Assembly (NCBI GenBank): GCA_964057225.1
Contig: OZ059895.1
Location: 13,020,001 to 13,084,000 of the forward strand
DNA: 64,000 nt
From: Auanema rhodensis
Lineage: Eukaryota > Animalia > Nematoda
Direction of reading: 5' to 3'
Both the position numbers and the translations under genes were made by a program. Position 1 is the stretch's first letter. Each line of letters starts with the position of its first letter. Of the stretch, positions 98-47,037 are shown piece after piece. The notes under the pieces were generated by a model that did not search any database, was not told the DNA's origin, and saw only the letters and a program-made list of their open reading frames with translations.

Positions 98-430
98 TGT
101 CGTTTGACAACTGGACTATTACCTCCAAGTATCAGTCCAAGTATGGAGTCGGTTCGTATGAGTGCGGTATTATGCGTTAAGACAAGTTAAATGAAGAAAG
201 GTTTATTCAACAAAATGCAACAACAGTAAATTGAACAAGTGGATTGATTTACGAATTTCCAAGAAATTCCTAAAATCAAAACAAAATTGGTGAGACATAA
301 AAATTTTAACCATTTGGTTCTCCCTTTTATAGGGAGGCACCAGATGGTTAAAGGGGGTGGAGTTAATACAAAAAAAAATACAACAAAACGTTAACACAAT
401 AAAGTTCGTATTTTCACGTTGACCGTGACA
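98..430 (-). repeat. 3' LTR of BEL element (333 bp)
   Basis: Direct repeat of 9976-10308 with only one mismatch seen (ttcaac vs ttctac). On - strand: TATAAAAG at 331-324 and AATAAA at 207-202. A short purine run (GCCGGGAA on -) precedes it. Confidence 0.96.
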
Positions 431-439
431 TTCCCGGCA

Positions 440-901
440 TTATGTATATCTTTTACGTTTGACGTCACCACAGACCACCCCATGGTGAGTATCGGCCTTG
501 CACTTATAGCAGGATACTTCGCACATTGTTGAATGTTTTGGGTTCAAACATTTTATGCATAGTCCCAATTCGTGTAAGCGTATGGTACGCTCTGGGGACG
601 AGGGGTAAATCGGACAAGCAGCTGTACGATGGCCATCAGCTGTAGGCTTGTTGCAGAATATGCAGGAGGCTTTAGGAGCCGTCTGAACAGCTAAATTATC
701 GAGCTTTAGATTCAGTGTGTTGTTGATGTTATCCAGGCGCGCGGAAATGTGGTTGACAGCGCTGGCGAGGTTATCATAAAACCTTTTCTCTAGAACCATT
801 AGCTGCCTTAGGTTGGCAGTGGTGTTGGGTAGATGAGAATAATTTTTGAGATCTTCCTCAAAGGAAGTGTTCTCACTTAAATTGGACGTTATTTCATCCA
901 T
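440..901 (-). CDS. Accessory protein (~153 aa): coiled-coil plus three Cys/His zinc knuckles resembling BEL Gag nucleocapsid
   Basis: CIFCNKPTADGHRTAAC / CIKCLNPKHSTMC / CYKCKADTHHGVVC, with the same spacing as the Gag knuckles, and a basic C-terminus KRKR. ATG at 901; the ORF track starts at GTG 907. Confidence 0.82.
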   Translation of the reverse strand: MDEITSNLSENTSFEEDLKNYSHLPNTTANLRQLMVLEKRFYDNLASAVNHISARLDNINNTLNLKLDNLAVQTAPKASCIFCNKPTADGHRTAACPIYPSSPERTIRLHELGLCIKCLNPKHSTMCEVSCYKCKADTHHGVVCGDVKRKRYT

Positions 902-904
902 TAG

Positions 905-943
905 CACTGAATTGAGAAAAACAATGGTTTCCCTCTTTATATA
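905..943 (-). promoter_or_regulatory. Putative internal promoter (TATATAAAG plus Inr-like TCAGT) or splice acceptor for the accessory ORF
   Basis: The - strand reads TATATAAAG (943-935) ... TTTTTCTCAATTCAG|TGCTAATG. TATA lies ~33 nt upstream of the A of TCAGT. The same site fits a nematode 3' splice site. Confidence 0.45.
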
Positions 944-1342
944 TTTGTTCGCATCTGTGGGTTGACCTATGATAAACGTCCCTTAGTTTATTGTAGAATA
1001 GTATGTGTTTACGGATACAATGTATAAAAAGCCTGTACAAAGGATTACTTTTTATGTGTATTATTTGGATAAATAAACTTGATGTTATCAAAGATTGAAG
1101 ATCTTGATAAAAAGATTTGTTTGTTTATAACTGTTGCATTTGTTTCTATATGTAGTGATTTTCTTTTGTTTATATTATTTTATGACCTATTTTTGCTTTG
1201 TTTATATTTTTTACTATTGTACTACGTGTGATTAGTAATTTAATTTTTATTGTATTCGTGAAGTTTTTGTACTTCCCTCTTGACTTTATTTTTTATTTTT
1301 TATTTTATTTTTTTTTTATTTTTATAGTTGTAATTGTTGCAG

Positions 1343-1774
1343 ATGTCACAATTACAGTATCAGGTTGAAGAGGAGATTGGAGAAGACGAGCTCGGTCCAT
1401 ATGAACTATGCGAACGATGCAAGGCGCAAGATACTCATCGCATACGGGAGGGCCCGGTAAGCTTATTATTTTTTTTTTTTTTTAATTTAATTAAATTTAT
1501 TTATTTATTTGTTTATTTTATTTTATCTCAGTATTGTTGCAGATGACAGACGATGAGCTTTATCCGGAGGATGGAGTCGAGCCAACTCGGGAGCAGCTCA
1601 TCTACATGTTCTCGAGGATGCCGTTGCCTCCCAACTGCAGATTCTGCAGGGCAAAGAACCCCCGCCACCACGAACGTGAGGAGGTAAGCTTATATATTTT
1701 AACTGTGAATGTAAGTATTGTTGTAGATGTCAGACGATGATGGTGAGGGGTATCCAGATATTTCAAGTATATAG
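1343..1774 (+). CDS. Antisense three-exon gene inside the BEL element, 100-aa acidic protein with two CxxC motifs (exons 1343-1456, 1543-1683, 1727-1774)
   Basis: Each exon is preceded by ATTGTTG(C/T)AG|ATG, and exons 1 and 2 end at GTAAGCTTA. Both introns (86 and 43 nt) are phase 0 and AT-rich. Stop TAG at 1772-1774, AATAAA at 1847-1852. Confidence 0.75.
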
Positions 1775-1898
1775 TGTTTTTGTTTTGTTTTTGTTTTTGT
1801 TTTTGTTTTTTTTTTTTGTGTTTTTAAACTGTTCTTATAGCTAATTAATAAAGTTTTTTTTTTTTTTTTTTTTTTATTACTACAGTAAGATTAGTGTT

Positions 1899-3416
1899 TT
1901 AATTTTTATTTGTGCTAGACTCAGCTCTGTGTCTAGGATTCCTGAGCATTTTTCTCAGTAATGATGTAATGATCATTACAATTTTTATCATCTGAACGAT
2001 TAATTTTTGTATGATTATGATGATTACAATTATTGCTTGTACTCCTATTATATAAGATAATACTGGTATAAAAACAGTTATCAGGAGGAAGCATAATGAT
2101 AATGCCCAATTTGTTTTAATTACATCCAAAATGTTTCTCCAGGTGTTAGCATTTGTCACAATGTTGATGATTGTTTTTTCAACATCTGGGATTTTACTAT
2201 CCCATTGTAATGTTCCTTGTATGATCACGTGTTTTTCATTAGCACATGTTACGAAGCATTCTTCATAGATTTCAGAATGTTCTGAGTAATATTCCACAGC
2301 AGTAAGCGGCATGTGTGGGGCGCATTCAATCATGTATATGTTCTCACTACATTGCATTGTGATCCAAGAATCCTTTTGTGATATACACATAAACTCGGCA
2401 ACAGCCGTTCTTCTACAGCTGTGACACCCGGAAAGTTTTTTAAATTCCGGTCGACAAGGAAAGTCGTACAGGAAGGTACGAGACGACACATTCCCTTGTA
2501 GTTGAAGAACAACAGTTGATTCATCAGTTTGAGGAATAAGTGTTAATTTGTTTTCTTTCATGGTAATTAGGGTGTTCTTGGTGTTCATTGGTAATAAGTT
2601 TGCCTGATTGAAAATATTATCAGATGGACAGGTACATGTTAGCTATTCCCTTTTTGATATTTTACAGTTACATAACTTCAGTATTTTACAAGAGTTAAAT
2701 TCATTTGTAGTTTGATCTTTGGTTTTGCATGCTACTTCACTCATAGTATGAGGTTCCATGTAATAACTGTTTATGGTTGATAATGCATATTTGGTGTTTA
2801 AATATCGGGTTGGTGGTACAATATGGGAGATTGAGCTTATATTAAAGTTTGGAAAATTAACAGTGTCGTATGGTTTTAAAAGAATATTAATATTGGCTTT
2901 GTGTTTAAATAGATCATACTTTACCTCTAATGGTATATTCATTTCCCAAGAATCACATTCTACTATTTCATAAACTATTTCATTGATTGGTTTAAATTCA
3001 GTTTGATAGAATGAGCAACCGTCTTCTAGAGACCAACATCCGCAGAAAAGAGAGCCACATCGCCTAGCACAACCAACTTGTGTTGGTCCTTCTTCTTTAT
3101 CAAATTCTTGTAATTGTCCAATAGAATTTATAGCTTCACAAGTGTGATTACAAGATCCTGTTCCATAACAGGAATATCGAGTTTTGTATTGAATTGTGCT
3201 TTCTCGAGTATAATATAGCGTACTTTTCTGGCAAATGTATTCTGTTGGTTTTTTCGTTATTTCTATTTTACCGATAGATTTATTTTGGTAAATGAATTCT
3301 AAGCAAGCGTCTCTTATGCCTTTATTGAAATTGATTTCATTATCGTATTCTTGATAACAATTTGTCCGATTAATGCAAATTATATTTATTGAATGCTTAA
3401 TATGTAAGTTTGAACA
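1899..3416 (-). CDS. env: Phlebovirus Gc-like class II fusion glycoprotein (env), interrupted by an in-frame TAG at 2643-2645
   Basis: Signal peptide LQLSIALMVLLITVES|C. Cys-rich ectodomain with SCYGTGSC and fusion-loop-like CARRCGSLFCGCWSLEDGC, domain-III-like GCHSC, and a C-terminal hydrophobic anchor. ORF 1899-2588 is in frame with ORF 2643-5513. Confidence 0.85.
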
Positions 3417-5546
3417 AGATTCCACTGTTATTAATAATACCATGAGTGCTATCGATAATTGTAATGAAGTGAATGATGATGTTCTCATGTAATTTGGAAT
3501 TTTAATAGTTTCTGGAATATCATTTTTCCATTTTGGAGTTACATTGTCAAATTTCGTGGCTACTGTGTTTTCCTTTTGTACGGCTACATCGTCTGAACTT
3601 GTTAATATTTTTGAATTAGGTTTTCCACTTCTAACTTCGGTTTGTATCGTTTGCCAATTATCATTTAAAAATTTATACCAATATTGGTCATTTTTATGAG
3701 CTTTCAATACTCTTTTACAAATTGCTAATATAGTAAATAATAGTATAATTGGTATGAAAAATGTTATCAAAGTCGTTAATGGATTACATTGTGGGAAATA
3801 TAATGCTTCCGCTGTAAGCAATTCAGAGGATTGGCATGTAGCCTCAATCGTTGGAATTATTCCAAGAAGAGCTACTTTTGGAACATTTGTTTTTATTTTA
3901 TTTTTCTTAAAATAACTTCTTACCGCTGCTTGACTACCCTGTGTTTTTGTTCTGAACCATCTATTTAGATTTGAAGGTTTGGATTCATTTTCGGTTTGAA
4001 GAGTTATCTCATTTGTTTGATCTTCCTCTTGTTCTAAGTTCGTATTATTAGCATCATTTTCGTCTCCTGCGTCGTTGATGATATTCATGTTGGGTGTATA
4101 GATTTCGAGTGGTATTACATTGTTACTTTGTTCACTTTCTTGAGTATTTTCAATAATTTCAATATTTTCAACCCGATTTCCTTTTTGTGTTACCGTCCCG
4201 GTGATTAAAAATGGATTCACTTGGTATTTTTTATTGTATCTCATTGAGTGAGGTTCTGACGCAAACGGTGCTGCTTCTGCGTTTCTCACTTCTAGTGGAT
4301 ATATGTGATTTAATGAACGAGTTGTTATGAGACCAGTGCCAGTTATTAGTTTTGCAGATCTAACTTCCCCATCTGCACTTTTTATTAGTTCTATTATGCG
4401 TCCTAATTTCCATTTACCTCTACTTGAATCCTCATTTTGTATTATAATAACTTCGCCTTCTTGTGGTTTCTTAGCGTTCGTTGCAGGTTGTTTTCTGTTG
4501 TGTTTGTAAATATCTCTAAGATACAGTAAATACTCTGAATAGAATTTTTTCCAGAATAATTGAGTTACATCGTTAGATAACTCTATTGCTTCAATGGCTT
4601 GCTCTATAGTTTGTATTGTCCTGCTATTGATAGTTTTATCATAAATTCGGGTATTCGATACGTTTGAAGAAAGTGTAAACCTGATGGAACGGTTTAAAAA
4701 ATCACAAGGTCTGATAGGCAAAATGTTCAGGTTGGATGGGTTCGGATGTGTAAGCGGGCGAGTATTCAAAATTGTTTCGATTTTTACAATTACTGTATGT
4801 ATATCATCAATTGACATTAATCTATTTCCAATTGTTTTGTATAGTGCTAACTTTGTTAGTCCTACTAGTCTTTCCCATGTTCCACCTTTCCATGGAGCCT
4901 GTGGTGTGTTGAAGTACCATTTAATATTCTTTTCGGCAAGATAATTGGTTAATGTTTTTTCATTTTTAGATTCATGGTTTTCTGTGTAAAATTCTATTAC
5001 TTTAGCACTTAATAAGAAATTTCCTCCATTATCGCTTCGTATTATTTCTGGAATACCTCTTCTTCCAATGAACCTTTCGAAAGCGTTTAAGAATGCCTTT
5101 GTTGATTGGTCAAAAACTATTTCTAAGTGTATAGCTCTTATAGCTAAACAAGTAAACAGACATATAAATATCTTTTTACCATCCTTTATGGTTATTGGAC
5201 CTAATAAGTCACAACCTGTACTCATGAATGGTTTTGTTAGAATTACTCTATCCTTAGGCAATGCTGGCATTAAGGACGTTCCAAACGGCAAAGCGTTGTA
5301 TCTATTGCAGATTGTGCATGTTTTGAGAACTGATCTGACTATGCTTGATGGTTTATTTAAAAAGTATTTTTGACGCAAGAGTGTTAGAACAAAGTCTCGC
5401 CCTTGGTGCATGCATTCTCTGTGTAAATGCATAATTATGTGTTCTGTGTACGGAGAATCCCTTGGAAGATATATGGGATTTTGAGTTTCAAACGGTAATT
5501 CCGAGTTGTTCAATCTACTACAAACTCTGATTATTTCTTCATCGAG
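2643..5546 (-). CDS. Integrase plus env N-terminal part of the BEL polyprotein
   Basis: HHCC (HRECMH...CTIC), DLLGP, SDNGGNF, PWKGGTWERLVG, WKLGRIIELIKSADGEVRSA. The frame is open upstream of the listed start as LDEEIIRVCSRLNNSELP. Confidence 0.92.
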   Translation of the reverse strand, partial: LDEEIIRVCSRLNNSELPFETQNPIYLPRDSPYTEHIIMHLHRECMHQGRDFVLTLLRQKYFLNKPSSIVRSVLKTCTICNRYNALPFGTSLMPALPKDRVILTKPFMSTGCDLLGPITIKDGKKIFICLFTCLAIRAIHLEIVFDQSTKAFLNAFERFIGRRGIPEIIRSDNGGNFLLSAKVIEFYTENHESKNEKTLTNYLAEKNIKWYFNTPQAPWKGGTWERLVGLTKLALYKTIGNRLMSIDDIHTVIVKIETILNTRPLTHPNPSNLNILPIRPCDFLNRSIRFTLSSNVSNTRIYDKTINSRTIQTIEQAIEAIELSNDVTQLFWKKFYSEYLLYLRDIYKHNRKQPATNAKKPQEGEVIIIQNEDSSRGKWKLGRIIELIKSADGEVRSAKLITGTGLITTRSLNHIYPLEVRNAEAAPFASEPHSMRYNKKYQVNPFLITGTVTQKGNRVENIEIIENTQESEQSNNVIPLEIYTPNMNIINDAGDENDANNTNLEQEEDQTNEITLQTENESKPSNLNRWFRTKTQGSQAAVRSYFKKNKIKTNVPKVALLGIIPTIEATCQSSELLTAEALYFPQCNPLTTLITFFIPIILLFTILAICKRVLKAHKNDQYWYKFLNDNWQTIQTEVRSGKPNSKILTSSDDVAVQKENTVATKFDNVTPKWKNDIPETIKIPNYMRTSSFTSLQLSIALMVLLITVESCSNLHIKHSINIICINRTNCYQEYDNEINFNKGIRDACLEFIYQNKSIGKIEITKKPTEYICQKSTLYYTRESTIQYKTRYSCYGTGSCNHTCEAINSIGQLQEFDKEEGPTQVGCARRCGSLFCGCWSLEDGCSFYQTEFKPINEIVYEIVECDSWEMNIPLEVKYDLFKHKANINILLKPYDTVNFPNFNISSISHIVPPTRYLNTKYALSTINSYYMEPHTMSEVACKTKDQTTNEFNSCKILKLCNCKISKRE

Positions 5547-8500
5547 AAAAAATACAAACCCTTCATGTTTTTCGTGAGGAGATCTATTGTTACATGCTGT
5601 TGTGCTTTACTTATTAGTAGTTTGGTTATAATCTCAATATCATTAGCTGTAGTTTGCCAGTTTTCATCTAATTGCATTACTTTATTTAACCTTGTTATAG
5701 CTGTGGGATGTACTTTTATGATCCAATGTCTCAAGAATTTACTTAATTTAACTATAGTTTTCAGTAAGGTATAGTTGTTGCTACGTAATTTGAATATATC
5801 TTCAACTGGTATTTGTGTTATTTGTTGTTGTTCAACGGTATCGATCAAGGTTGTTATATTCCAAATAGGCTCATATTCAATTTCTTCAATGTGTGACTTT
5901 GTTTGGGTTAACCATTGTGGTCCTTTAATCCACATAGAATCACTTAGTTCTTGGAGACAAGCTCCTCGAGAACCAATATCGGCTGGGTTATAATCACCAT
6001 TCACATGAAAAAGTTTGATTTTAATGTTATTTTCCTTCAATTTATCTATATACTTCCTTACATTGTCGACGCGACAGCCTACATATGGTGGTAAAGTTTT
6101 CTGATGGTTAGCTATCCAATGTAAGGCTACCTTACTGTCACTGGCTACGTGTACAGTTTTAAGGTGATTGGTTGTAGATGTGATATTATCAGCTAACATA
6201 ATACCTAATAGTATGGCAATGAGTTCTAGTCTTGGGATAGTTAGATTTCCCTTTTTTGCAATTTTCGACTTTCCGCTTACAAGTTGGCTTATTTTACCAT
6301 TGGTTTCAATGTATGTGCAGGCAGCAATGGCTAGTTTACTAGCGTCAGTAAATACCCATAATATAGAGTCATTCAGGTTTAACTTTCTTTCAAGTCTCAA
6401 TTCCTTTTCATTTAATAATTCATTTATGACTAAATTCCATTTATGTGTTATTTCTTGGGGTAATTCAACATCCCAACCCTTGAATTGATCACTTGATTCT
6501 CTTAATAATAATTTTAATGGTAAAATCAATGGGCTTGCCATACCTAATGGATCAAATATTGAATGTATTTGACTTAACATGTTCCTGTGCGTATTGATTT
6601 CAAATTTCTTTAATTTAAGTATAAGAACGAATAAATCTAATTTTGTATCATAATTTAAACCCAAAATTTTGGTAGTATTATGTGGGTATTTGTCTTCATT
6701 GTTCATATCTTCAGTAACTTTTGGATTGTTGCTCATAAATTCTCTTAAATTCATAGAAATGCCTTGTAAGATTTTCTTGGCTTTTTCGCATTTTATCTTA
6801 GCTTCTTCAACACTGTTTGCATATAAAATTATATTGTCAACATATAAAGAATCGAGCAAGTGACTAGCGTAAGGGTCGGTATGATTATTGAGGTACCAAG
6901 CTAAGCTCATGCTTAATATACCCGGGGACGCTGTTATACCAAATGGTAGCCGTTTGAATTGGTATGTCATGACGTTATATTTATTTACCGATTCATTTTC
7001 GTTTCTAATCCAGAAAAATTTACAATATTTTCTGTGCTCTTCTTTAATACTTATTTGTAAAAATGCTGACTCAATGTCGCAGGTTATTATTATTGGACTT
7101 TTTCTACATTTTATTAATATATCATGAATTTTGTGAATAAATGTTTGGCCTGAATGCATAACTTGGTTCAACGATGGACTATTTTTTTGTTTTGCTGAAG
7201 CATCAAACACGATTCTTAAAGGTCGAGCTTTTTCTTTTCTCCACACTCCATGATGTGGTAAGAAAAATCCATCTTCGGCTGATTCATCAACAATTGGCTC
7301 GATAATTCCCTTTTGAATGTATTCATTTATTAATTTTTTATACCATTCTAGTTGTTCTTTATTAGAGTGTAGATTTTTCCATAATGTCATGAATCTATGA
7401 AAAGCTGGCCATTTATTATTTTTCAATTTATTCAAATAATTTTTAAATGGAAACGGAGCTTCAATTCTCCCGGCTTTAATGGATAGTTCTTTACTATATT
7501 CTTTAAGATAATTCTCTGCTTCTGCATTGTTATCTACTATGGTGCTTATTCCAATAGTATCGATAAGGAAAAGTTCTTTCAGTTTTGTTTCTGGAGGTGG
7601 TTCATGACTTTGTTCCTCTTCAATGCTACACAGAGTTACAATTTTTTCAAGTTTAGTTTTTCCATTTATAAGAGTTCCAAATACAGATCCTTTACATAAA
7701 AGATCAGAGGGAAGTCTGAATTCTTCATTGTCTTTTACAAACAATTTTAATCTATCTTGTCCAATTAAAACATCCGGTTCAAAAACTTCCCCATTTGTAT
7801 CGGTGTTGGCTAATATAATATTGTTTTCTTTAATGAAACTCAAATCCTTTCTTGAAAGATAAGGACTATATATGTGGGAACTGATTTTTGGTTTAGTGAG
7901 CATTTCAGTTACAATTAAATTTTTCTCTTTAGTATAGAATATTGTGTTAACTATACTTGAAACATGAGAATGTTTCATTCCTCCAATACCATGAAATGTT
8001 TTTTTATGTTTGGATTTAACTGGTAGTTTCATCCTTTTTGCTAGATCTTCTCTGATAAAAGATCGTTGAGAACAATCATCAAAAATAATGTTAACTTTCT
8101 CATAACTATCGCTATTGTAATTGAACAAATTTGCTTTCGCTGTTCGTAAAATTATTTGGCCTTTTTCTACGTCATGATTACCAACAATTGTGGTTAAACT
8201 TGTGGGTTCTTCATGTGCTTTCTTTGAAATAATTGTTTGATTATTTCTGGTCTTTTCTTCATCATTATCCCTTTGTAAAGAAATGTTGGTGATGACTCCA
8301 TTTCTATTCTGATTTCTTTTATTTTGGTAACAAACTGAAATGTTGTGATCATCATGACAGCTGTTGCATTTAAACTTTGGCCATGTGCAGTTTTTGCTTT
8401 GATGATTGTCTGCAAAGCATACATAACATAGCCTTTTTTCTCTTAAAATTTTCCTTTTTTCCGTTGTTTCAACAGGACACATATGGCTATTGTGTGAATT

Positions 8501-9727
8501 GTTCGCGCAAAAAACGCAATTCCTTCTTTGTTTCAAATCTTTAACTTCATTCAATCGAAATTGTTTTTTAGTTTGATCACCATCTGGATTTTTTCTTTTT
8601 TCATTGTTACTGAGATACAGTGTTTCAGTGTTTTCAGTCATCTGTAGTAGTTTTACTTGCGCCGAAATATGTTCAATGATTTTCTCGTGGGACCATTCAA
8701 AATTTTGTTTGATGTGAATATCTTTGATTATTTCAAATGGGAATTTATTGAGTACGGTAGCAACATAAAGCTCTTTGGTTAATGATCCTCCCGCCGCTTG
8801 AATCTGTCGCAGCAGAGCTTTTATCTCTCTTAGCGTTTGAGCACAACTATCGGCTCGTCTTGAAGCTTTTGGCACCTTATTCAACTTGTTGATCAGCGTT
8901 GCTGTATCAACAGCGTATGAGGAATATTCTTCCTTCAAACAATTTTTCATAAACTCATAGTTTTCTTCGGTACCGGGAATTCCCCTAAGAAGATATTCGC
9001 CTTCACCTGATAAGGACTCACATAGGAAGTTCACTTTTTCACTTATAGAGAAAGATTCATTGTTATCAATCATTCTCATTAATCTATCCCAGAATAAAGG
9101 GAATTTTTCCGGAGTACCGTCAAAGGTTGGAGTTTTTAATACGGGTCTTTGCAGTATTTGGTTAATCAGTCTTACTTCATTAACATGCTGATCATGCACT
9201 ACCTGATCGGGTAAACTGTTTTGTTTTTCTTGTACCTCGTTTGTACAATTTTCATATTCTTTTTCTTCTGTATATTCAACTCTTTCCCGAAGTTGTTGTA
9301 ATTCAAGTTGTATTTCCATATCTTTGATTTTTTCTTTATTTTTATCAATGAGGTTTTTTAAGAATATCAACTTGTCATTTAATTCCAGAATTATTAACGT
9401 GGCATTGCCACGGATGTCTCCTTTTTCACCTTCTTCGATTTTTGTAAATTTTTTGTTTAATTCTTTTTGGAGCTCTTCTTCTAAAAGCTCACAAACTCTT
9501 TGAAAATTTATTTCAATGGTTTCAATTGATTGGAGTTTATTCTCCAAAATATTCAAGTAATTTTTAACTCTTGCACATTCATTCTCTTGCGCAATAATTT
9601 GATTTACCGGCTCAGACAATTCTGAGTAATCGGTCATTTTCTTATAGTTTTCAACTTTAGAATTCAGTTTATTCAAAAATTCTAATTCTCTCCCCATTTG
9701 GAGAATATATCTTTGAGCGGAGGACAT
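5531..9727 (-). CDS. gag-pol: BEL/Pao Gag-protease-RT-RNase H polyprotein
   Basis: First ATG at 9727 (MSSAQRY). Gag FDGTPEKFPLFW and three CCHC knuckles; protease FDDCSQRSFI; RT LRIVFDAS, DIESAFLQI, RLPFG, YVDN; RNase H FTDAS, TIPRLEL, NPADIGSRG. Confidence 0.95.
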   Translation of the reverse strand: MSSAQRYILQMGRELEFLNKLNSKVENYKKMTDYSELSEPVNQIIAQENECARVKNYLNILENKLQSIETIEINFQRVCELLEEELQKELNKKFTKIEEGEKGDIRGNATLIILELNDKLIFLKNLIDKNKEKIKDMEIQLELQQLRERVEYTEEKEYENCTNEVQEKQNSLPDQVVHDQHVNEVRLINQILQRPVLKTPTFDGTPEKFPLFWDRLMRMIDNNESFSISEKVNFLCESLSGEGEYLLRGIPGTEENYEFMKNCLKEEYSSYAVDTATLINKLNKVPKASRRADSCAQTLREIKALLRQIQAAGGSLTKELYVATVLNKFPFEIIKDIHIKQNFEWSHEKIIEHISAQVKLLQMTENTETLYLSNNEKRKNPDGDQTKKQFRLNEVKDLKQRRNCVFCANNSHNSHMCPVETTEKRKILREKRLCYVCFADNHQSKNCTWPKFKCNSCHDDHNISVCYQNKRNQNRNGVITNISLQRDNDEEKTRNNQTIISKKAHEEPTSLTTIVGNHDVEKGQIILRTAKANLFNYNSDSYEKVNIIFDDCSQRSFIREDLAKRMKLPVKSKHKKTFHGIGGMKHSHVSSIVNTIFYTKEKNLIVTEMLTKPKISSHIYSPYLSRKDLSFIKENNIILANTDTNGEVFEPDVLIGQDRLKLFVKDNEEFRLPSDLLCKGSVFGTLINGKTKLEKIVTLCSIEEEQSHEPPPETKLKELFLIDTIGISTIVDNNAEAENYLKEYSKELSIKAGRIEAPFPFKNYLNKLKNNKWPAFHRFMTLWKNLHSNKEQLEWYKKLINEYIQKGIIEPIVDESAEDGFFLPHHGVWRKEKARPLRIVFDASAKQKNSPSLNQVMHSGQTFIHKIHDILIKCRKSPIIITCDIESAFLQISIKEEHRKYCKFFWIRNENESVNKYNVMTYQFKRLPFGITASPGILSMSLAWYLNNHTDPYASHLLDSLYVDNIILYANSVEEAKIKCEKAKKILQGISMNLREFMSNNPKVTEDMNNEDKYPHNTTKILGLNYDTKLDLFVLILKLKKFEINTHRNMLSQIHSIFDPLGMASPLILPLKLLLRESSDQFKGWDVELPQEITHKWNLVINELLNEKELRLERKLNLNDSILWVFTDASKLAIAACTYIETNGKISQLVSGKSKIAKKGNLTIPRLELIAILLGIMLADNITSTTNHLKTVHVASDSKVALHWIANHQKTLPPYVGCRVDNVRKYIDKLKENNIKIKLFHVNGDYNPADIGSRGACLQELSDSMWIKGPQWLTQTKSHIEEIEYEPIWNITTLIDTVEQQQITQIPVEDIFKLRSNNYTLLKTIVKLSKFLRHWIIKVHPTAITRLNKVMQLDENWQTTANDIEIITKLLISKAQQHVTIDLLTKNMKGLYFFSMKK

Positions 9728-9827
9728 TATTTTAGCCTTCCTCAATGGATATTTCAGATTCAGCGATATTTTTATCGTCTTATTGTTTCTTGACAAGTGA
9801 TTTCTTGTCAACTCGGATTTTCTACGA

Positions 9828-9920
9828 GTTCTTCGGAATTTTATTTCTCCGGCCGTTCTATATAACCTTTAACACAATGTTCTTCGGAATTTATTTCTCC
9901 GGCGGTTCTATATAACCTTT
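9828..9920. repeat. Two ~43-bp direct repeats in the BEL 5' leader
   Basis: GTTCTTCGGAATTT(T)ATTTCTCCGGC(C/G)GTTCTATATAACCTTT at 9828-9870 and 9879-9920. Confidence 0.9.
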
Positions 9921-9955
9921 GTTTTAAACTTTCCTTATCAGTAAGCAACTGAAAT

Positions 9956-9973
9956 ATCCTGCCGTGGTCGCCA
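9956..9973 (-). promoter_or_regulatory. Primer-binding site, tRNA-Arg
   Basis: TGGCGACCACGGCAGGAT on -, 2 nt inside the 5' LTR. It is complementary to a tRNA 3' end ...CCTGCCGTGGTCG-CCA, recalled as tRNA-Arg. Confidence 0.85.
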
Positions 9974-9975
9974 AA

Positions 9976-10308
9976 TGTCGTTTGACAACTGGACTATTAC
10001 CTCCAAGTATCAGTCCAAGTATGGAGTCGGTTCGTATGAGTGCGGTATTATGCGTTAAGACAAGTTAAATGAAGAAAGGTTTATTCTACAAAATGCAACA
10101 ACAGTAAATTGAACAAGTGGATTGATTTACGAATTTCCAAGAAATTCCTAAAATCAAAACAAAATTGGTGAGACATAAAAATTTTAACCATTTGGTTCTC
10201 CCTTTTATAGGGAGGCACCAGATGGTTAAAGGGGGTGGAGTTAATACAAAAAAAAATACAACAAAACGTTAACACAATAAAGTTCGTATTTTCACGTTGA
10301 CCGTGACA
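9976..10308 (-). repeat. 5' LTR of BEL element (333 bp)
   Basis: Direct repeat of 98-430, followed by the TSD GGCCC. Confidence 0.96.
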
Positions 10309-10376
10309 GGCCCAACGTTGCTTGACTTGCCAGATCGGACGGGATGGCGTACTTTCAACGTGGTATGGTCGTAAGC
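10309..10376 (-). pseudogene. 5' part (nt 1-68) of the interrupted 5S rRNA gene
   Basis: Exact continuation of the 5S sequence after the LTR. Confidence 0.93.
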
Positions 10377-10743
10377 AAAAATACCTGATATTCAATGATT
10401 TACATACTTATCCTCGTTATTGTTTTTTTTTCCAATTTCATGTTAGTTATGTAATTTTCTACGTTACATCTGAATCCCTCGATGATATCAAATCTTATGA
10501 GATCCAAATACAATAAATTAAAAAAGGTTTCACAGTTGTATAGTGTTTAAACAATGTTTGTTTCAATAGGAAATAGATAGAAACAGTAAAGTTAAGATGA
10601 AGGTTCATAAACTACTGGTTTATAACTGTAATATAGAAATAAGATTGAAGATATTTTGATGCCTTGGGTTGAGCTATCTAAGTAAAACTGCTGGAAAATT
10701 AAAAACATTTGTTACGGAAGAAATAAAATTGAAAATCAGCTGC

Positions 10744-20300: not shown

Positions 20301-21187
20301 GATATCAAATCTTATGAGATCCAAATACAATAAATTAAAAAGGTTTCACAGTTGTATAGTGTTTAAACAATGTTTGTTTCAATAGGAAATAGATAGAAAC
20401 AGTAAAGTTAAGATGAAGGTTCATAAACTACTGGTTTATAACTGTAATATAGAAATAAGATTGAAGATATTTTGATGCCTTCGGTTGAGCTATCTAAGTA
20501 AAACTGCTGGAAAATTAAAAACATTTGTTACGGAAGAGATAAAATTGAAAATCAGCTGCATGGCGTACTTTCAACGTGGTATGGTCGTAAGCGAAAAAAT
20601 CTGATATTCAATGATTTACATACTTATCCTCGTTATTGTTTTTTTTCCAATTTCATGTTAGTTATGTAATTTTCTACGTTACATCTAAATCCCTCGATGA
20701 TATCAAATCTTATGAGATCCAAATACAATAAATTAAAAAGGTTTCACAGTTGTATAGTGTTTAAACAATGTTTGTTTCAATAGGAAATAGATAGAAACAG
20801 TAAAGTTAAGATGAAGGTTCATAAACTACTGGTTTATAACTGTAATATAGAAATAAGATTGAAGATATTTTGATGCCTTGGGTTGAGCTATCTAAGTAAA
20901 ACTGCTGGAAAATTAAAAACATTTGTTACGGAAGAGATAAAATTGAAAATCAGCTGCATTGAGTACTTTCAACGTGGTATGATCGTTAAAAAAATTTGAA
21001 AAGCTTACGGCACCCGGGATTCCCAAGCCGTCTCCGATCCAAGTACTAACCGGGCCCAACGTTGCTTGACTTGCCAGATCAGACGGGATGGCGTACTTTC
21101 AACGTGGTATGGTCGTAAGCGAAAATACCTGATATTCAATGATTTACATACTTATCCTCGTTATTGTTTTTTTTTCCAATTTCATGT

Positions 21188-21598
21188 CGTTCCATGGTGG
21201 TTCCCCAGGGTTCCGGCTGGGTAACCACATGGAATTACTTTCTTTTCTTCCAAATATAAATGATAAAGAGCATAGAGAGAAAGGTTTATTTATGATAAAG
21301 TATACAAATTACAATAATAAAAGTTACATAATGATTCCTAGTCGCAGCCCAAAGGACTCGTAAGGAAACCTTATATAGTTTTCCTTACGAGCATAAAAAG
21401 TGGTTATATCAGGTCTGCGGAACTTGGTTCCGCTTGAATTGGGCTTTCTTTAATTAAACTTAATATGAAAAAGTGTTCGTTCATTATTGCATTGAATTCC
21501 TGTTTCTCAAATGTAGCGTCAGCTATTTGTTTTTATAATGTTCCGTTTTATAAGCGATTGACGGTCAATCGCTCTACTTATAGGACACGTATGGAACA
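21188..21598 (-). repeat. 3' LTR (411 bp)
   Basis: Direct repeat of 24942-25352, with imperfect inverted ends CGTTCCAT...ATGGAACA. Confidence 0.95.
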
Positions 21599-21801
21599 TG
21601 CCTAATATCGAAAAAGTAGCTGACCTCAGCTACATCGAGAAAGTGAAATTCCATGCAAATGTGAAAGTTGTATGAAATGTTTCAAAAAATAAAAGAATAC
21701 TGATAATACAGAACAATTTTATGAGAAAAAATAAAAGGAAAACAATGTAATTACAAAATAATATATCATATATCATACTGGGAATCTTTCAAAAGTTCTT
21801 T

Positions 21802-22404
21802 TTAGTCTTCTTCATAATACTGGTATATCTCTGGTAATGGTGATGATCCTAGGTCGTGGAGAAGATCCATAGTCTTGTTGCATAAATCCGTTTTTCTTTC
21901 CATTTCTTCCTTGGTGGTTGCTGGTGATGCCAGAAATATTTGTAGAGCATTTATAATGCTTTTTCTTGCCTCTGTGGATGGCAGTTCGCTGCAATGTTGC
22001 AGGCTCCATTCTTGATAGGCCGAATGGGTCTCGGCAATAATCCAGTTTGGTGTCTGCTGTTCTGGTGAATCGCAACTAGGTGAATAACCTAGTTGGTCCC
22101 TTAGTTCAGCAATGGCTTCTCGGATGACTCCTGCTATGTTGGTCCATGGTCCTATGTAGTGGTCAACCTCCGACAGTCGATCCTTGTCGTATTGGTAACA
22201 TAGGATTTTGAGCGTTTCAGTACTAGTTTTCGCTCTTGTTAGTCCTTGAACTAACTCTTTCAGGATCTTCTCTTTCCTGGGGCGGTTGGCGATGGTATTG
22301 GCGCCTAGCTGCTTCAATTCTCTTACTAATAGTTGAATTGAAAGCCATCTCTTTTTGGCCATCTTGAGGGGAATTTCGACGGCTTCAGGGAGTTGGGTGG
22401 ACAT
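21802..22404 (-). CDS. Hypothetical 200-aa, probably helical protein (LTR element cargo)
   Basis: Uninterrupted ATG-started ORF, GC-richer than its AT-rich flanks. No recognised motif. Confidence 0.7.
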   Translation of the reverse strand: MSTQLPEAVEIPLKMAKKRWLSIQLLVRELKQLGANTIANRPRKEKILKELVQGLTRAKTSTETLKILCYQYDKDRLSEVDHYIGPWTNIAGVIREAIAELRDQLGYSPSCDSPEQQTPNWIIAETHSAYQEWSLQHCSELPSTEARKSIINALQIFLASPATTKEEMERKTDLCNKTMDLLHDLGSSPLPEIYQYYEED

Positions 22405-22774
22405 TGTTATCTTTGTTACTGTTTTCTGTCCTTTTTATCCTTTTTAAAACTAGGTCGGTCTGTTCCTTCCTTTTTGTCGCCTCCTTTTTGACCAGTTAGG
22501 TGAAAAAAAATGATGAAGATTGTTGATTAAAACTTTGCAGTGATTTTTGAAAGATTCCAAGTATGATGTATAATTTTATTTTGAAATTTTGGTTATTGAT
22601 ACAATATTTTTATGAGAGTGAAAAAATAAAAATGTACAATAATTTGTGTAGAATTTTATGTCTTACTTAAATGAGAAAAAAAAAATCATATATAGGTTCA
22701 AGTTTAGATGAAAATTATGAAAATGGTATTATACTTTTTGTGATTTTTATATAGAAATTATGGATTTTTTTTTA

Positions 22775-23053
22775 CTATTGTTCTAGCTTCTTACTTGTAG
22801 TCCCAATAACTGTTGACGGTCTTTTCTTATGGATGACTGGTACTGTTGGTGCCACGAAGTTTGGGTCCGGGATCTGACTCTTCGAAACTCTCTTCTTCGG
22901 CTCTGTTACTGGTATGGTGCTGTGATACCTTATCGGCACATGATAAGGTTTTGCTGGCGTTGTAGGAGAATTATCTTCTAATCCCAATGCCAATTTAAGT
23001 GATGAACTCCATTTCTTAATTGTGGGTGGCTCCTTCATCCGTTCCTCATACAA
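22775..23053 (-). CDS. Hypothetical K/P/T/S-rich fragment, likely the C-terminal continuation of 23074-23511
   Basis: No ATG at the listed start. The frame is open upstream (KFTKLSEKIEENARKELYEER) and overlaps the end of the upstream ORF in the -1 frame. Same composition as that ORF. Confidence 0.5.
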   Translation of the reverse strand: MYEERMKEPPTIKKWSSSLKLALGLEDNSPTTPAKPYHVPIRYHSTIPVTEPKKRVSKSQIPDPNFVAPTVPVIHKKRPSTVIGTTSKKLEQ

Positions 23054-23073
23054 TTCTTTTCTTGCGTTTTCTT

Positions 23074-23511
23074 CTATTTTCTCTGATAGTTTGGTGAATT
23101 TCGAGGAAGAGGAGAAGAAAGAATAGCAGTATTTGGGTATGAAAATGATATTTGAGAATAATCTTTACAAGGGGAAGTATTTGTGCTAACATAGCTAGAG
23201 CTTTTGATAACGTTAGAAATGCGTTTAGGAGTTTGTTTGTTAATAGACGTTTTAATTTTACTAAGAGTAATAGCGTGGCGAGAAGTTTTAATAGCTGTTG
23301 TGCCTATTTTCTTCGCGGGGGTACCCGGTATAGCGGGTGGTTTCTTTGCAGCAGTAGGTCGGCGCTTCGTGTCCGGCTCATAAACATTTGGAGGTCCTCT
23401 TTTTCTTTGATTCCGCTCGAGTACTGGCTCGACGTGCGTATCATTACCGGGGGCTGCGCTCTGTGGATTTGTTTTATCCTGCGGAGGATTTTTACTCTTC
23501 GAGTCCGTCAT
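23074..23511 (-). CDS. Hypothetical basic, low-complexity protein with NLS-like RKRG...KRRP
   Basis: ATG lies 13 nt downstream of an acceptor-like TTTCCTTTCCAG. K/P/T-rich. Confidence 0.6.
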   Translation of the reverse strand: MTDSKSKNPPQDKTNPQSAAPGNDTHVEPVLERNQRKRGPPNVYEPDTKRRPTAAKKPPAIPGTPAKKIGTTAIKTSRHAITLSKIKTSINKQTPKRISNVIKSSSYVSTNTSPCKDYSQISFSYPNTAILSSPLPRNSPNYQRK

Positions 23512-24229
23512 CTTGTTGGTTTTCCTGGAAAGGAAATTATTATACCAACGATGCGAATCTTATAAAAATATATATACAACGTGAGAGGCAATATGGGGTT
23601 GTATGCGTGACGCTTGCTAGGGGGCCAGCCTGCAGCGAATCTTCTAACGGAGAATTGCTCAATCGGGTACATACACGGGCCTGTGACCGGTGCGCCCTTT
23701 CTAGGATCAAGTTCCCATCTCTCGAATAGGCGTGAAATATACGACGGTGATCTAAGCAGTATTCCCTTTCAGTCTTTCGACAAGATTAGGTGCTCAGGCC
23801 TCGTACATTCACTTTCCCAGACTTCTCTTGCCTATGAAAAATCACAGAAATCGCTCCCTTAACGAAATTCTGCTCCCCTGATTTTTCATGGTGAGACCAC
23901 TCTAACACTTTCATTCTCGACTAATTCTGTCGTAATTTTCAAATTTGCAAAAATAGGACCAAAAAGGGATCTTCAAAATCAGGAATGCGTACGTCTTATA
24001 TCAAAAATAGTGGTTGCCTCCGCTCAGTTCTCGAGACAGTCTGGTATTGCTTCTCACGGGCTACTTTTAGGATCAAAATGCAAAATTGTAAATCTTAGGT
24101 TCGGGATTCAGATAAAAAATTTCAAAATTATTTGGCTGTTTTCTGGGTTATATTAGGAAGAAGAAAAAAATAATAGTAATAAGAGAGGGAAAAAGATAAA
24201 ATTTAAAAGAAGATAAAAGAAAAATAAAA

Positions 24230-24281
24230 TAGGAATATAGTAGGAATATAGTAGGAATATAGTACTAGTATAGAATAGTTT

Positions 24282-24322
<41 letters not shown>
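24230..24322. repeat. (TAGGAATATAG)3 and (AT)18 microsatellite in the LTR-element leader
   Basis: Read directly at 24230-24262 and 24287-24322. Confidence 0.9.
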
Positions 24323-24326
<4 letters not shown>

Positions 24327-24923
24327 GAGTAATACATTTTAAAGGATAGAATAGAAATTAATGAATTTTAATATATATAAAACAATGAATTTTTTGATGA
24401 TTCATGAAAGAAATTAATTCATTTTTCATTCAAAAATTGTTTGAAACTTTATAACAAAAATTTATGAGAGATAGAATAGATTTTGATTAAAAAAACAGAA
24501 AAAGAAAAGATTGACAGAAAAAAAAATATCGAAATACCTTTCTTTGAATGAATAAATATAAAAGAATTTCAAATTAATTTATGATAGTTATAAACAAAGT
24601 TTTTCCTCAAAAATGAAAGAAAGATCTTAGAATATGGATAAAAATCAAAATGTTTCTTTTAAATGAATGAATATAAAATTTCAAAATTAAGTTGTTTCAA
24701 AATATATCTTTTTAAATAAATGTATATAAGATTTCAGTATTAATTTATGAATCAAAATCAAAATAAAGTTTTTTTGAATGAATGAAATAAAGAAGAGAAA
24801 GATTTCAAATTAAATTCATATAGCATAATCGAAATATAATTTTTTAATTAGATGTATGAAAGACAACAAAATTAAATTTATGTAGCGAAATATGGTTCTT
24901 AGAGATTCGTCGGTTATAGACGA

Positions 24924-24941
24924 ATTTCGGTGGAACCTCCA
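24924..24941 (-). promoter_or_regulatory. Primer-binding site, tRNA-Gln
   Basis: TGGAGGTTCCACCGAAAT on -, abutting the LTR. Complementary to the recalled metazoan tRNA-Gln 3' end ...ATCTCGGTGGAACCT-CCA with 1 mismatch. Confidence 0.85.
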
Positions 24942-25352
24942 CGTTCCATGGTGGTTCCCCAGGGTTCCGGCTGGGTAACCACATGGAATTACTTTCTTTT
25001 CTTCCAAATATAAATGATAAAGAGCATAGAGAGAAAGGTTTATTTATGATAAAGTATACAAATTACAATAATAAAAGTTACATAATGATTCCTAGTCGCA
25101 GCCCAAAGGACTCGTAAGGAAACCTTATATAGTTTTCCTTACGAGCATAAAAAGTGGTTATATCAGGTCTGCGGAACTTGGTTCCGCTTGAATTGGGCTT
25201 TCTTTAATTAAACTTAATATGAAAAAGTGTTCGTTCATTATTGCATTGAATTCCTGTTTCTCAAATGTAGCGTCAGCTATTTGTTTTTATAATGTTCCGT
25301 TTTATAAGCGATTGACGGTCAATCGCTCTACTTATAGGACACGTATGGAACA
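24942..25352 (-). repeat. 5' LTR (411 bp)
   Basis: Direct repeat of 21188-21598, adjacent to the PBS. Confidence 0.95.
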
Positions 25353-28300
25353 ATGTTAGTTATGTAATTTTCTACGTTACATCTAAATCCCTCAATGATA
25401 TCAAATCTTATGAGATCCAAATACAATAAATTAAAAAGGTTTCACAGTTGTATAGTGTTTAAACAATGTTTGTTTCAATAGGAAATAGATAGAAACAGTA
25501 AAGTTAAGATGAAGGTTCATAAACTACTGGTTTATAACTGTAATATAGAAATAAGATTGAAGATATTTTGATGCCTTGGGTTGAGCTATCTAAGTAAAAC
25601 TGCTGGAAAATTAAAAACATTTGTTACGGAAGAGATAAAATTGAAAATCAGCTGCATGGCGTACTTTCAACGTGGTATGGTCGTAAGCGAAAAAATCTGA
25701 TATTCAATGATTTACATACTTATCCTCGTTATTGTTTTTTTTTCCAATTTCATGTTAGTTATGTAATTTTCTACGTTACATCTAAATTCCTCGATGATAT
25801 CAAATCTTATGAGCTCCAAATACAATAACTTAAAAAAGGTTTCACAGTTGTGTAGTGTTAAAACAATGTTTGTTTCAATAGGAAATAGATAGAAACAGTA
25901 AAGTTAAGATGAAGGTTCATAAACTACTGGTTTATAACTGTAATATAGAAATAAGATTGAAGATATTTTGATGCCTTGGGTTGAGCTATCTAAGTAAAAC
26001 TGCTGGAAAATTAAAAACATTTGTTACTGAAGAGATAAAATTGAAAATCAGCTGCATTGCGTACTTTCAACGTGGTATGATCGTTAAAAAAATTTGAAAA
26101 GCTTACGGCACCCGGGTTTCCCAAGCCGTCTCCGATCCAAGTACTAACCGGGCCCAACGTTGCTTGACTTGCCAGATCGGACGGGATGGCGTACTTTCAA
26201 CGTGGTATGGTCGTAAGCGAAAATACCTGATATTCAATGATTTACATACTTATCCTCGTTATTGTTTTTTTTCCAATTTCATGTTAGTTATGTAATTTTC
26301 TACGTTACATCTAAATTCCTCGATGATATCAAATCTTATGAGCTCCAAATACAATAAATTAAAAAAGGTTTCACAGTTGTATAGTGTTAAAACAATGTTT
26401 GTTTCAATAGGAAATAGAAAGAAACAGTAAAGTTAAGATGAAGGTTCATAAACTACTGGTTTATAACTGTAATATAGAAATAAGATTGAAGATATTTTGA
26501 TGCCTTGGGTTGAGCTATCTAAGTAAAACTGCTGGAAAATTAAAAACATTTGTTACTGAAGAGATAAAATTGAAAATCAGCTGCATGGCGTACTTTCAAC
26601 GTGGTATGATCGTTAAAAAAATTTGAAAAGCTTACGGCACCCGGGATTCCCAAGCCGTCTCCGATCCAAGTACTAACCGGGCCCAACGTTGCTTAACTTG
26701 CCAGATCGAACGGGATGGCGTACTTTCAACGTGGTATGGTCGTAAGCGAAAATACCTGATATTCAATGATTTACATACTTATCCTCGTTATTGTTTTTTT
26801 TCCAATTTCATGTTAGTTATGTAATTTTCTACGTTACATCTAAATCCCTCGATGATATCAAATCTTATGAGATCCAAATACAATAAATTGAAAAAGGTTT
26901 CACAGTTGTATAGTGTTTAAACAATGTTTGTTTCAATAGGAAATAGAAAGAAACAGTAAAGTTAAGATGAAGGTTCATAAACTACTGGTTTATAACTGTA
27001 ATATAGAAATAAGATTGAAGATATTTTGATGCCTTGGGTTGAGCTATCTAAGTAAAACTGCTGGAAAATTAAAAACATTTGTTACTGAAGAGATAAAATT
27101 GAAAATCAGCTGCATGGCGTACTTTCAACGTGGTATGATCGTTAAAAAAATTTGAAAAGCTTACGGCACCCGGGATTCCCAAGCCGTCTCCGATCCAAGT
27201 ACTAACCGGGCCCAACGTTGCTTAACTTGCCAGATCGGACGGGATGGCGTACTTTCAACGTGGTATGGTCGTAAGCGAAAATACCTGATATTCAATGATT
27301 TACATACTTATCCTCGTTATTGTTTTTTTTCCAATTTCATGTTAGTTATGTAATTTTCTACGTTACATCTAAATCCCTCGATGATATCAAATCTTATGAG
27401 ATCCAAATACAATAAATTGAAAAAGGTTTCACAGTTGTATAGTGTTTAAACAATGTTTGTTTCAATAGGAAATAGATAGAAACAGTAAAGTTAAGATGAA
27501 GGTTCATAAACTACTGGTTTATAACTGTAATATAGAAATAAGATTGAAGATATTTTGATGCCTTGGGTTGAGCTATCTAAGTAAAACTGCTGGAAAATTA
27601 AAAACATTTGTTACGGAAGAGATAAAATTGAAAATCAGCTGCATGGCGTACTTTCAACGTGGTATGGTCGTAAGCGAAAAAATCTGATATTCAATGATTT
27701 ACATACTTATCCTCGTTATTGTTTTTTTTCCAATTTCATGTTAGTTATGTAATTTTCTACGTTACATCTAAATTCCTCGATGATATCAAATCTTATGAGC
27801 TCCAAATACAATAAATTAAAAAAGGTTTCACAGTTGTATAGTGTTAAAACAATGTTTGTTTCAATAGGAAATAGAAAGAAACAGTAAAGTTAAGATGAAG
27901 GTTCATAAACTACTGGTTTATAACTGTAATATAGAAATAAGATTGAAGATATTTTGATGCCTTGGGTTGAGCTATCTAAGTAAAACTGCTGGAAAATTAA
28001 AAACATTTGTTACTGAAGAGATAAAATTGAAAATCAGCTGCATGGCGTACTTTCAACGTGGTATGATCGTTAAAAAAATTTGAAAAGCTTACGGCACCCG
28101 GGATTCCCAAGCCGTCTCCGATCCAAGTACTAACCGGGCCCAACGTTGCTTAACTTGCCAGATCGGACGGGATGGCGTACTTTCAACGTGGTATGGTCGT
28201 AAGCGAAAATACCTGATATTCAATGATTTACATACTTATCCTCGTTATTGTTTTTTTTCCAATTTCATGTTAGTTATGTAATTTTCTACGTTACATCTAA

Positions 28301-43687: not shown

Positions 43688-43787
43688 GGCATTCATACAT
43701 TGGCACCATTTTACCCATACACCAAATATACACTATACAATGCCACCAAGAATTATACATCGGCACCATAGTTTGTTACATTGACAC
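43688..43787 (+). repeat. Left TIR
   Basis: Inverted copy of 46938-47037 with internal TACA(T/A)(T/C)G(G/C/A)CACC sub-repeats. Confidence 0.92.
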
Positions 43788-43886
43788 CAACTTTTCGAAT
43801 ATGTCTATTTTTTTTTCATTTTCAAAAATACCAACTAAACAAATTAATTTCATTAATGAATATTTTTATTTTGAAAAAATGAGGAT

Positions 43887-46769: not shown

Positions 46770-46937
46770 CTTGGAAATTTTAACAATAGTGAGTATTGAA
46801 AAAATATTTGCTTATAACTGAGAAAATCATATTTGACCCGTGAGAAATGTTACCCTATTCCTACCCTTCCAATTTCAATTAGAACATCACATTTAAATAT
46901 TTTAAGTGCGTGAGAAAAACTATTGTTTCAAATTTTA

Positions 46938-47037
46938 GTGTCAATGTAACAAACTATGGTGCCGATGTATAATTCTTGGTGCCATTGTATAGTGTATATT
47001 TGGTGTATGGGTAAAGTGGTGCTAATGTAGATATACC
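46938..47037 (-). repeat. Right TIR
   Basis: Reverse complement GGTATATCTACATTAGCACCACTTTACCCATACACC... matches the left end. Confidence 0.92.

Follow-up and report, generated by a model that had tools for sequence, protein, structure and literature searches.

A candidate spliced accessory gene on the antisense strand of an env-bearing BEL/Pao element in the nematode Auanema rhodensis

Cer8 and Cer9 of Caenorhabditis elegans are LTR retroelements of the BEL/Pao class. Cer9 carries sdg-1 (W09B7.2/F07B7.2), a spliced and translated gene with a link to germ granules and no homologue outside C. elegans, and its paralogues ZK262.8 and C03A7.2 reside in Cer8, according to the accessible parts of PMC11793870 and PMC13277809. 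Cer19-ORF2 (C38D9.2, F15D4.5) is described in the available text of PMC7084138 as a separate zf-CCHC gene between the LTRs, in a group whose relatives carry a phlebovirus-G2 env. The RNA of Cer1 is controlled by CERV, a spliced regulator (PMC10309623, seen in part). On the opposite strand, plant Gypsy elements harbor additional ORFs (aORFs), namely gene23 of Grande, RIRE2 and TRP28 of Retand (PMC7264820 and PMC11963269, in excerpt), and the antisense retroviral genes hbz of HTLV-1 and APH-2/3/4 include a spliced example, hbz (PMC10186651, in excerpt). Within the reach of these partial sources, therefore, resident accessory genes of nematode LTR elements are already known, as are antisense accessory genes of plant elements and HTLV-1.

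The window analyzed here is the whole 64,000-nt stretch of A. rhodensis DNA, in which a three-exon gene lies between env and the 3' LTR of a BEL/Pao element, on the strand opposite to gag-pol-env. As far as the available text of the sdg-1 papers allows, the present gene would resemble sdg-1 in being an orphan, spliced, separately expressed gene within a nematode LTR element, and the two differ in that SDG-1 is a protein of ~35 kDa, against ~100 aa here, and in that no tandem-unit structure is described there for sdg-1. SDG-1 was not among the exon-2 matches in two protein-library searches. Cer19-ORF2, likened by its description in the accessible text, matches the concept of a neighboring ORF at 440-901 with Gag-knuckle signatures rather than the antisense gene. 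The plant aORFs share with the present gene the antisense orientation, the position between pol and the 3' LTR, an internal promoter of their own (in Grande; predicted here) and a function that is not known, whereas they are long ORFs of Gypsy elements, and the word "intron" has no occurrence in the available text of PMC11963269. The likeness to HTLV-1 hbz/APH would be that of a retrovirus with a regulatory gene that is antisense and spliced; by the same excerpted source, hbz is driven from the 3' LTR and HBZ is of bZIP type, in contrast to the predicted internal promoter and small acidic product at this locus. CERV is a functional analogue only, being a 517-aa protein of the Gypsy class whose N-terminal exons are shared with GAG, as the accessible part of PMC10309623 states. 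Alike in element type is Atlas virus of Ancylostoma ceylanicum, a nematode belpaovirus with a phlebovirus-like Env and the reverse transcriptase motif YVDN, which is typical of nematode belpaoviruses; it has a single Gag-Pol-Env ORF in 9,204 nt, and neither "antisense" nor "accessory" occurs in the available text of PMC9094657. A literature search by title and abstract opening, with early Cer-element descriptions and supplements outside its scope, returned no report of a BEL/Pao element with a multi-exon gene on its antisense strand, and the accessible parts of PMC3118150, PMC3315495, PMC4402516 and PMC4367959 contain no antisense BEL gene. Such an arrangement may already exist, unremarked, in C. 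elegans, since the papers on sdg-1, judging by the portions available, give its strand in figures alone.

The element occupies the minus strand and is composed of the following parts.

98..430, minus strand: 3' LTR, 333 nt, with TG...CA ends
1899..5606, minus strand: integrase plus an env of phlebovirus-G2 type, read in two frames that are separated near 2642/2643 (PF07245, E 1.7e-43; PF18701; PF17921)
5531..9868, minus strand: gag-PR-RT-RH frame with the RT motif YVDN (PF05380, E 1.6e-33; PF03564; PF00078)
near 9958-9973, minus strand: primer-binding site following the 5' LTR, which we take to be that of tRNA-Arg
9976..10308, minus strand: 5' LTR, identified by comparison of the LTR pair

The Pfam domains comprise a Pao peptidase, DUF1759, RT, integrase domains and phlebovirus G2 env, and, for the integrase-env frame, the top named matches come from the parasitic nematodes Haemonchus, Necator, Oesophagostomum and Ancylostoma. 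Three characters of Belpaoviridae-type elements are found together, namely an LTR pair with TG...CA ends and a target duplication, Gag-PR-RT-RH-IN with Pao-specific domains, and YVDN with a phlebovirus-like Env. A fourth, the single uninterrupted polyprotein frame, is missing from the present copy, whose polyprotein, as assembled, is broken near 5531-5606 (between gag-PR-RT-RH and integrase) and near 2642/2643. The two LTRs, of 333 nt each, differ at one position; the insertion is recent and the element young, and the signals of the antisense gene are all intact. A 5-bp target duplication, GGCCC, flanks the LTRs at 93-97 and 10309-10313, and the element interrupts a 5S rRNA gene on the margin of a 5S array (split 5S match, 10289-10376). 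The insertion site is thus the 5S gene itself, and a target preference for 5S is possible, one copy being at hand. In the leader before gag, a tandem duplication of ~50 nt lies at 9828-9920, and ahead of the 3' LTR, 431-470 holds a short purine run and no clear polypurine tract. Thirteen AATAAA hexamers face the genomic RNA on the minus strand of 992-1878, mostly in the T-rich leader and intron 1 of the antisense gene, and one of them lies 21 nt past the env stop; full-length genomic RNA has to read through all thirteen.

The antisense gene fills an interval free of sense ORFs.

1023..1030, plus strand: TATA-like box TATAAAAA; the antisense gene is predicted to have its promoter here
1031..1342, plus strand: T-rich leader with four upstream ATGs, no GT[AG]AG donor and an acceptor at its end; predicted outron
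1343..1456, plus strand: exon 1, 38 aa, acidic, with one C-x2-C and one His; 1372-1455 under the spliced contig
1457..1542, plus strand: intron 1, 86 nt, GT-AG, phase 0, GC 0.13; exactly missing from the X1 contig
1543..1683, plus strand: exon 2, 47 aa, with an acidic N-part and C-x2-C followed by two His; 1542-1640 under the spliced contig
1684..1726, plus strand: intron 2 (predicted), 43 nt, GT-AG, phase 0, GC 0.26
1727..1774, plus strand: coding part of exon 3, 15 aa and TAG; a truncated third unit
1775..1877, plus strand: T-rich 3' UTR carrying AATAAA (1847-1852); the gene meets env, whose stop is at 1899, tail-to-tail

Gene anatomy is complete from the TATA-like box through AATAAA. The acceptor-start motif ATTGTTGYAG/ATG (the slash marks the exon start) begins at 1333, 1533 and 1717, and the donor GTAAGCTTA stands at 1457 and 1684. 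The preliminary description had been drawn from these signals, with three exons at this motif, identical donors, phase-0 introns and a TAG followed by AATAAA; all its coordinates check, and the translations are as written there. All exon lengths are multiples of three. The GC content of exons 1, 2 and 3 is 0.50, 0.57 and 0.40, and in 40-nt windows it is 0.05-0.25 over the leader and intron 1 versus 0.40-0.60 over exons 1-2. The third-position GC is 0.45 in exon 1, 0.72 in exon 2 and 0.48 in the ORF at 440-901, versus 0.27 in gag-pol and 0.25 in IN-env. The 13-mer at the acceptor and start occurs three times on the plus strand of the whole window, always in the antisense gene, and never on the minus strand (~0.001 expected per element strand), and a simple intron filter run over both strands of 431-9975 returned only introns 1 and 2; as the motif and the filter thresholds were picked after the fact, these counts demonstrate uniqueness and do not amount to a clean P value. 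Open frames of such short length are common by chance, arising in 1325 and 1705 of 10,000 shuffles. A donor-like GTAAGT also lies inside intron 2 at 1711-1716, 16 nt ahead of the acceptor. With four ATGs and no consensus donor, the leader fits an outron that would be removable by spliced-leader (SL) trans-splicing. A search with Rfam at the gathering threshold over 1-26000 found no SL RNA gene.

Head-to-head with the antisense gene lies a second small ORF of the element.

440..901, minus strand: stand-alone sense ORF resembling nucleocapsid (NC-like), 153 aa, with three Gag-type Cys-His knuckles, recognized by alignment to the element's Gag knuckles
936..943, minus strand: TATA-like box TATATAAA, ~35 nt ahead of the ATG of the NC-like ORF; putative promoter

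The NC-like ORF can be aligned with the knuckles in the Gag of the same element, and 22 of the 107 stored proteins match it at E<=0.05 (best, 1.5e-9); it is clearly of element origin. The Atlas protein library contains a similar nematode cluster (score, 0.94), a lead only; in another search, none of six candidates passed. The divergent TATA boxes of the two genes are 80 nt apart. Because 12 such TATA matches occur per 20,422 strand-bases of the element, the divergent pair is suggestive rather than proof of a shared promoter region. Beyond the preliminary description, the analysis thus adds the divergent NC-like ORF, the TATA pair and the precedent of sdg-1 in Cer9, a spliced resident gene of a nematode LTR element.

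Regarding splicing, four public sequencing runs were compared, none of which is on record as RNA; the RNA status of one, X1, is a guess. A 183-nt contig of X1 aligns through its letters 1-84 to 1372-1455 and through its letters 85-183 to 1542-1640, with nothing between and 181 of 183 letters identical, so that the 86-nt intron 1 is exactly removed and exon 1 is joined to exon 2. As 1456 and 1542 are both G, the joint in the contig equals the predicted 1456/1543 junction. The ends of intron 1 share just one G with their flanks, which makes a chance deletion unlikely, and a random deletion falling at both splice sites is unlikely as well; splicing of intron 1, in the present copy or a close one, is therefore the simplest reading. 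The support is one contig from one of the four runs, at a depth of 2.72 and carrying no strand, and its junction was read from the table of aligned pieces and is missing from a separate joint table. The contig spans 1372-1640 only, with the 5' end and intron 2 outside. Of the two junctions named in the preliminary description, 1456/1543 is accordingly seen in a contig of a run guessed to be RNA, and 1683/1727 lies beyond the reach of the contig. Over 431-10720, X1 yielded the spliced contig alone, with gag-pol-env, the NC-like ORF and one 5S spacer all uncovered; this pattern fits an RNA run and is left uncounted, since lack of cover proves nothing. Runs X3 and X4 gave no contig matches, and the short AT-rich pieces from run X2 were taken as noise. 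That a public contig lacks precisely the GT-AG intron, along with an intron-like anatomy that is unique within the element, largely refutes the idea that chance motifs in a decayed tandem triplication mimic a gene, an idea to which the low-complexity T runs of the introns and exon interiors that are not significantly alike lend something, and which is now very improbable. The earlier claim of an antisense spliced gene inside an env-bearing BEL/Pao element is supported by the anatomy, the Pfam domains and the intron missing from the contig.

The exons had been regarded as diverged copies of one module, a view that stands at the unit boundaries and not in the peptides. Units 2 and 3 have 28 of 32 nt in common around the acceptor and start, unit 1 shares 18/32 and 19/32 with them, and both donors read G/GTAAGCTTAT. 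Peptide similarity between exons 1 and 2 does not exceed that of shuffled peptides, 748 of 5000 of which reach the score, and for all pairs of exon interiors the counts are 748, 419 and 4165 of 5000. Duplication is clear at the boundaries and not significant inside the peptides, with C-x2-C-[KR]A found in both exon 1 and exon 2. Compared with the NC-like ORF, exon 1 is reached by 17 and exon 2 by 1103 of 2000 peptide shuffles, and at the DNA level the counts are 122/1000 and 40/1000; the likeness of the exon Cys motifs to the knuckles of the neighboring ORF is borderline after several comparisons, leaving an origin from inverted knuckles as a hint only. Searches with the unit motif gave no match among metagenome contigs. 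The repeated ATGs have also been read as a sign that SL trans-splicing takes place at each acceptor, so that nested proteins would start at exons 2 and 3, and an ATG directly after each acceptor and an intron 1 as T-rich as the leader are in keeping with this. Tandem duplication of a unit that starts with acceptor and ATG accounts for the repeated ATGs without nested products, and a strong donor lies close upstream of each internal acceptor. Moreover, the sole transcript-like contig is cis-spliced across acceptor 2, and exon 3 alone would give 15 residues, making nested proteins improbable.

The predicted spliced product is an acidic protein of ~100 residues, put forward in the preliminary description as a candidate Zn-binding regulator or anti-silencing factor. 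The preliminary description did not recognize it from known BEL/Pao elements, in agreement with the lack of a credible relative of exon 2 in three large protein libraries, exon 1 having been searched less widely (Pfam, 107 stored proteins and 30 loci). Exons 1 and 2 were searched singly, exon 3 being too short to search. Exon 2 had no relative among proteins of 84-2000 aa, and its best score in the Atlas protein library was 0.86, below the lead threshold. Among 1.84 billion representatives it had one match (E 4e-4), to a repetitive protein, which was judged to be due to chance. Exons 1 and 2 showed no Pfam match at the cut-off, including none to PF04195, the domain that marks the plant TRP28-type aORFs, and no match to the 107 stored proteins; viral contigs held no relatives. 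Thirty distant BEL loci (26-43% identity, not sister copies) lacked an env, matched the exons at E 0.43 at best and had nothing like the intron anatomy seen here. With no homologue of exon 2 and no match of exons 1 and 2 in the 107 proteins or, credibly, the 30 loci, no sign of selection on the protein is available from these comparisons. The structure prediction that had been proposed as a check was carried out for exon 2; the weak model comprises short helices (pLDDT 70, pTM 0.33) and had no match in the PDB at E<=0.001. Exons 1-2 contain two Cys each and lack the last Cys of the Gag CCHC knuckle, C-x2-C-x3/4-H-x4-C. The C2H2 zinc finger has the pattern C-x2-C-x12-H-x3-H, from which these exons depart in having His 5-6 residues past the second Cys. 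If the product binds zinc, the likeliest site may be the two C-x2-C halves of exons 1 and 2, which, once joined by splicing, may jointly hold one zinc.

Two further explanations bear on whether the product matters to the element. A captured host gene or fragment could be carried as a passenger, with the X1 contig stemming from the host copy, and this would account for a codon GC unlike that of gag-pol-env and for the 2 differences in the 84 exon-1 letters of the contig; in view of these differences, the contig may also represent a sister copy, a different strain, a host paralogue or an error. Transduced genes usually lie in the gag-pol sense, as the available text of PMC7264820 has it, no relative of exon 2 emerged from the 1.84 billion representatives save the spurious repeat protein, and the NC-like ORF likewise has a raised third-position GC despite its element origin, so that host capture is rather unlikely. 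The other explanation accepts a real transcript that works as RNA (by pairing with genomic RNA, seeding small RNAs or transcriptional interference) or is a by-product of a bidirectional promoter, its peptide being incidental. Retroelement antisense transcripts can act as RNA (accessible parts of PMC7264820 and PMC10186651), exon 2 is without a homologue and the frames are short. Nevertheless, an ATG start and phase 0 at all three exons, the high third-position GC of exons 1-2 and C-x2-C-[KR]A in both argue for coding, and this explanation, in any of its modes, is considered unlikely.

The explanation preferred here is that the locus is a self-contained antisense accessory gene of the BEL/Pao element, whose acidic product of ~100 residues is predicted to be a regulator of the element's own RNA or of its silencing, and it is held with moderate confidence. 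Taken separately, a real spliced gene is highly probable, whereas its translation and usefulness to the element are favored only slightly, and regulation of the element's own RNA or silencing, as this particular role, is doubtful. An internal bidirectional promoter at ~940-1030, as suggested by the TATA pair, would drive the antisense gene one way and the NC-like ORF the other. The T-rich leader would be removed by SL trans-splicing at 1342, intron 1 would be cis-spliced, as seen once, and the splicing of intron 2 is predicted, as is a poly(A) site past 1852. Introns that are antisense to the genomic RNA survive reverse transcription. In the present element, the genomic RNA is of the opposite sense, in which the intron ends do not read as splice sites, and both introns would thereby outlast reverse transcription and be kept. 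The gene would have grown by tandem triplication of a unit of acceptor, ATG, exon, donor and intron, as the boundaries indicate, and Gag-knuckle-like pieces are a possible source of that unit, at the level of a weak hint. By analogy with SDG-1 or CERV, the protein would have a germ-line role. A bolder version holds that an endogenous retrovirus built an intron-containing antisense regulator by inverting and triplicating Gag zinc-knuckle pieces, co-expresses it with the NC-like gene from one internal bidirectional promoter, formed a new zinc site from the C-x2-C halves, and through the protein escapes germ-line silencing or premature polyadenylation inside a 5S rDNA array; this version is considered unlikely.

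The surroundings hold other insertions. The 5S rDNA array, at 10309-64000, mixes ~529-nt units bearing a full 5S gene with ~400-nt units holding a fragment only. In a 5S spacer, a second LTR element at 21187-25353 has LTRs that are identical over 404 aligned nt, a site resembling a primer-binding site near 24925-24940, presumably for tRNA-Gln, no recognized gag/pol, and minus-strand ORFs at 21802-22434 and 23074-23559 without a Pfam match at the cut-off; it is likely non-autonomous, with orphan genes only. Another element in the array, at 43690-47030, has terminal inverted repeats of ~75 nt and several short minus-strand ORFs, again with no Pfam match at the cut-off.

The usual annotation of nematode belpaoviruses is one Gag-Pol-Env frame, and an ORF-based procedure would therefore miss a short spliced gene that lies opposite to it. 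If translated, the gene would be a compact accessory gene without known relatives, in an element of retrovirus-like complexity, here meaning a divergent promoter inside the element and three transcription units, all predicted. It would offer a manageable way to examine how elements of this kind control their RNA or avoid being silenced by small RNAs, and it illustrates how a new multi-exon gene can grow as units are duplicated, on the strand that keeps introns from being lost.
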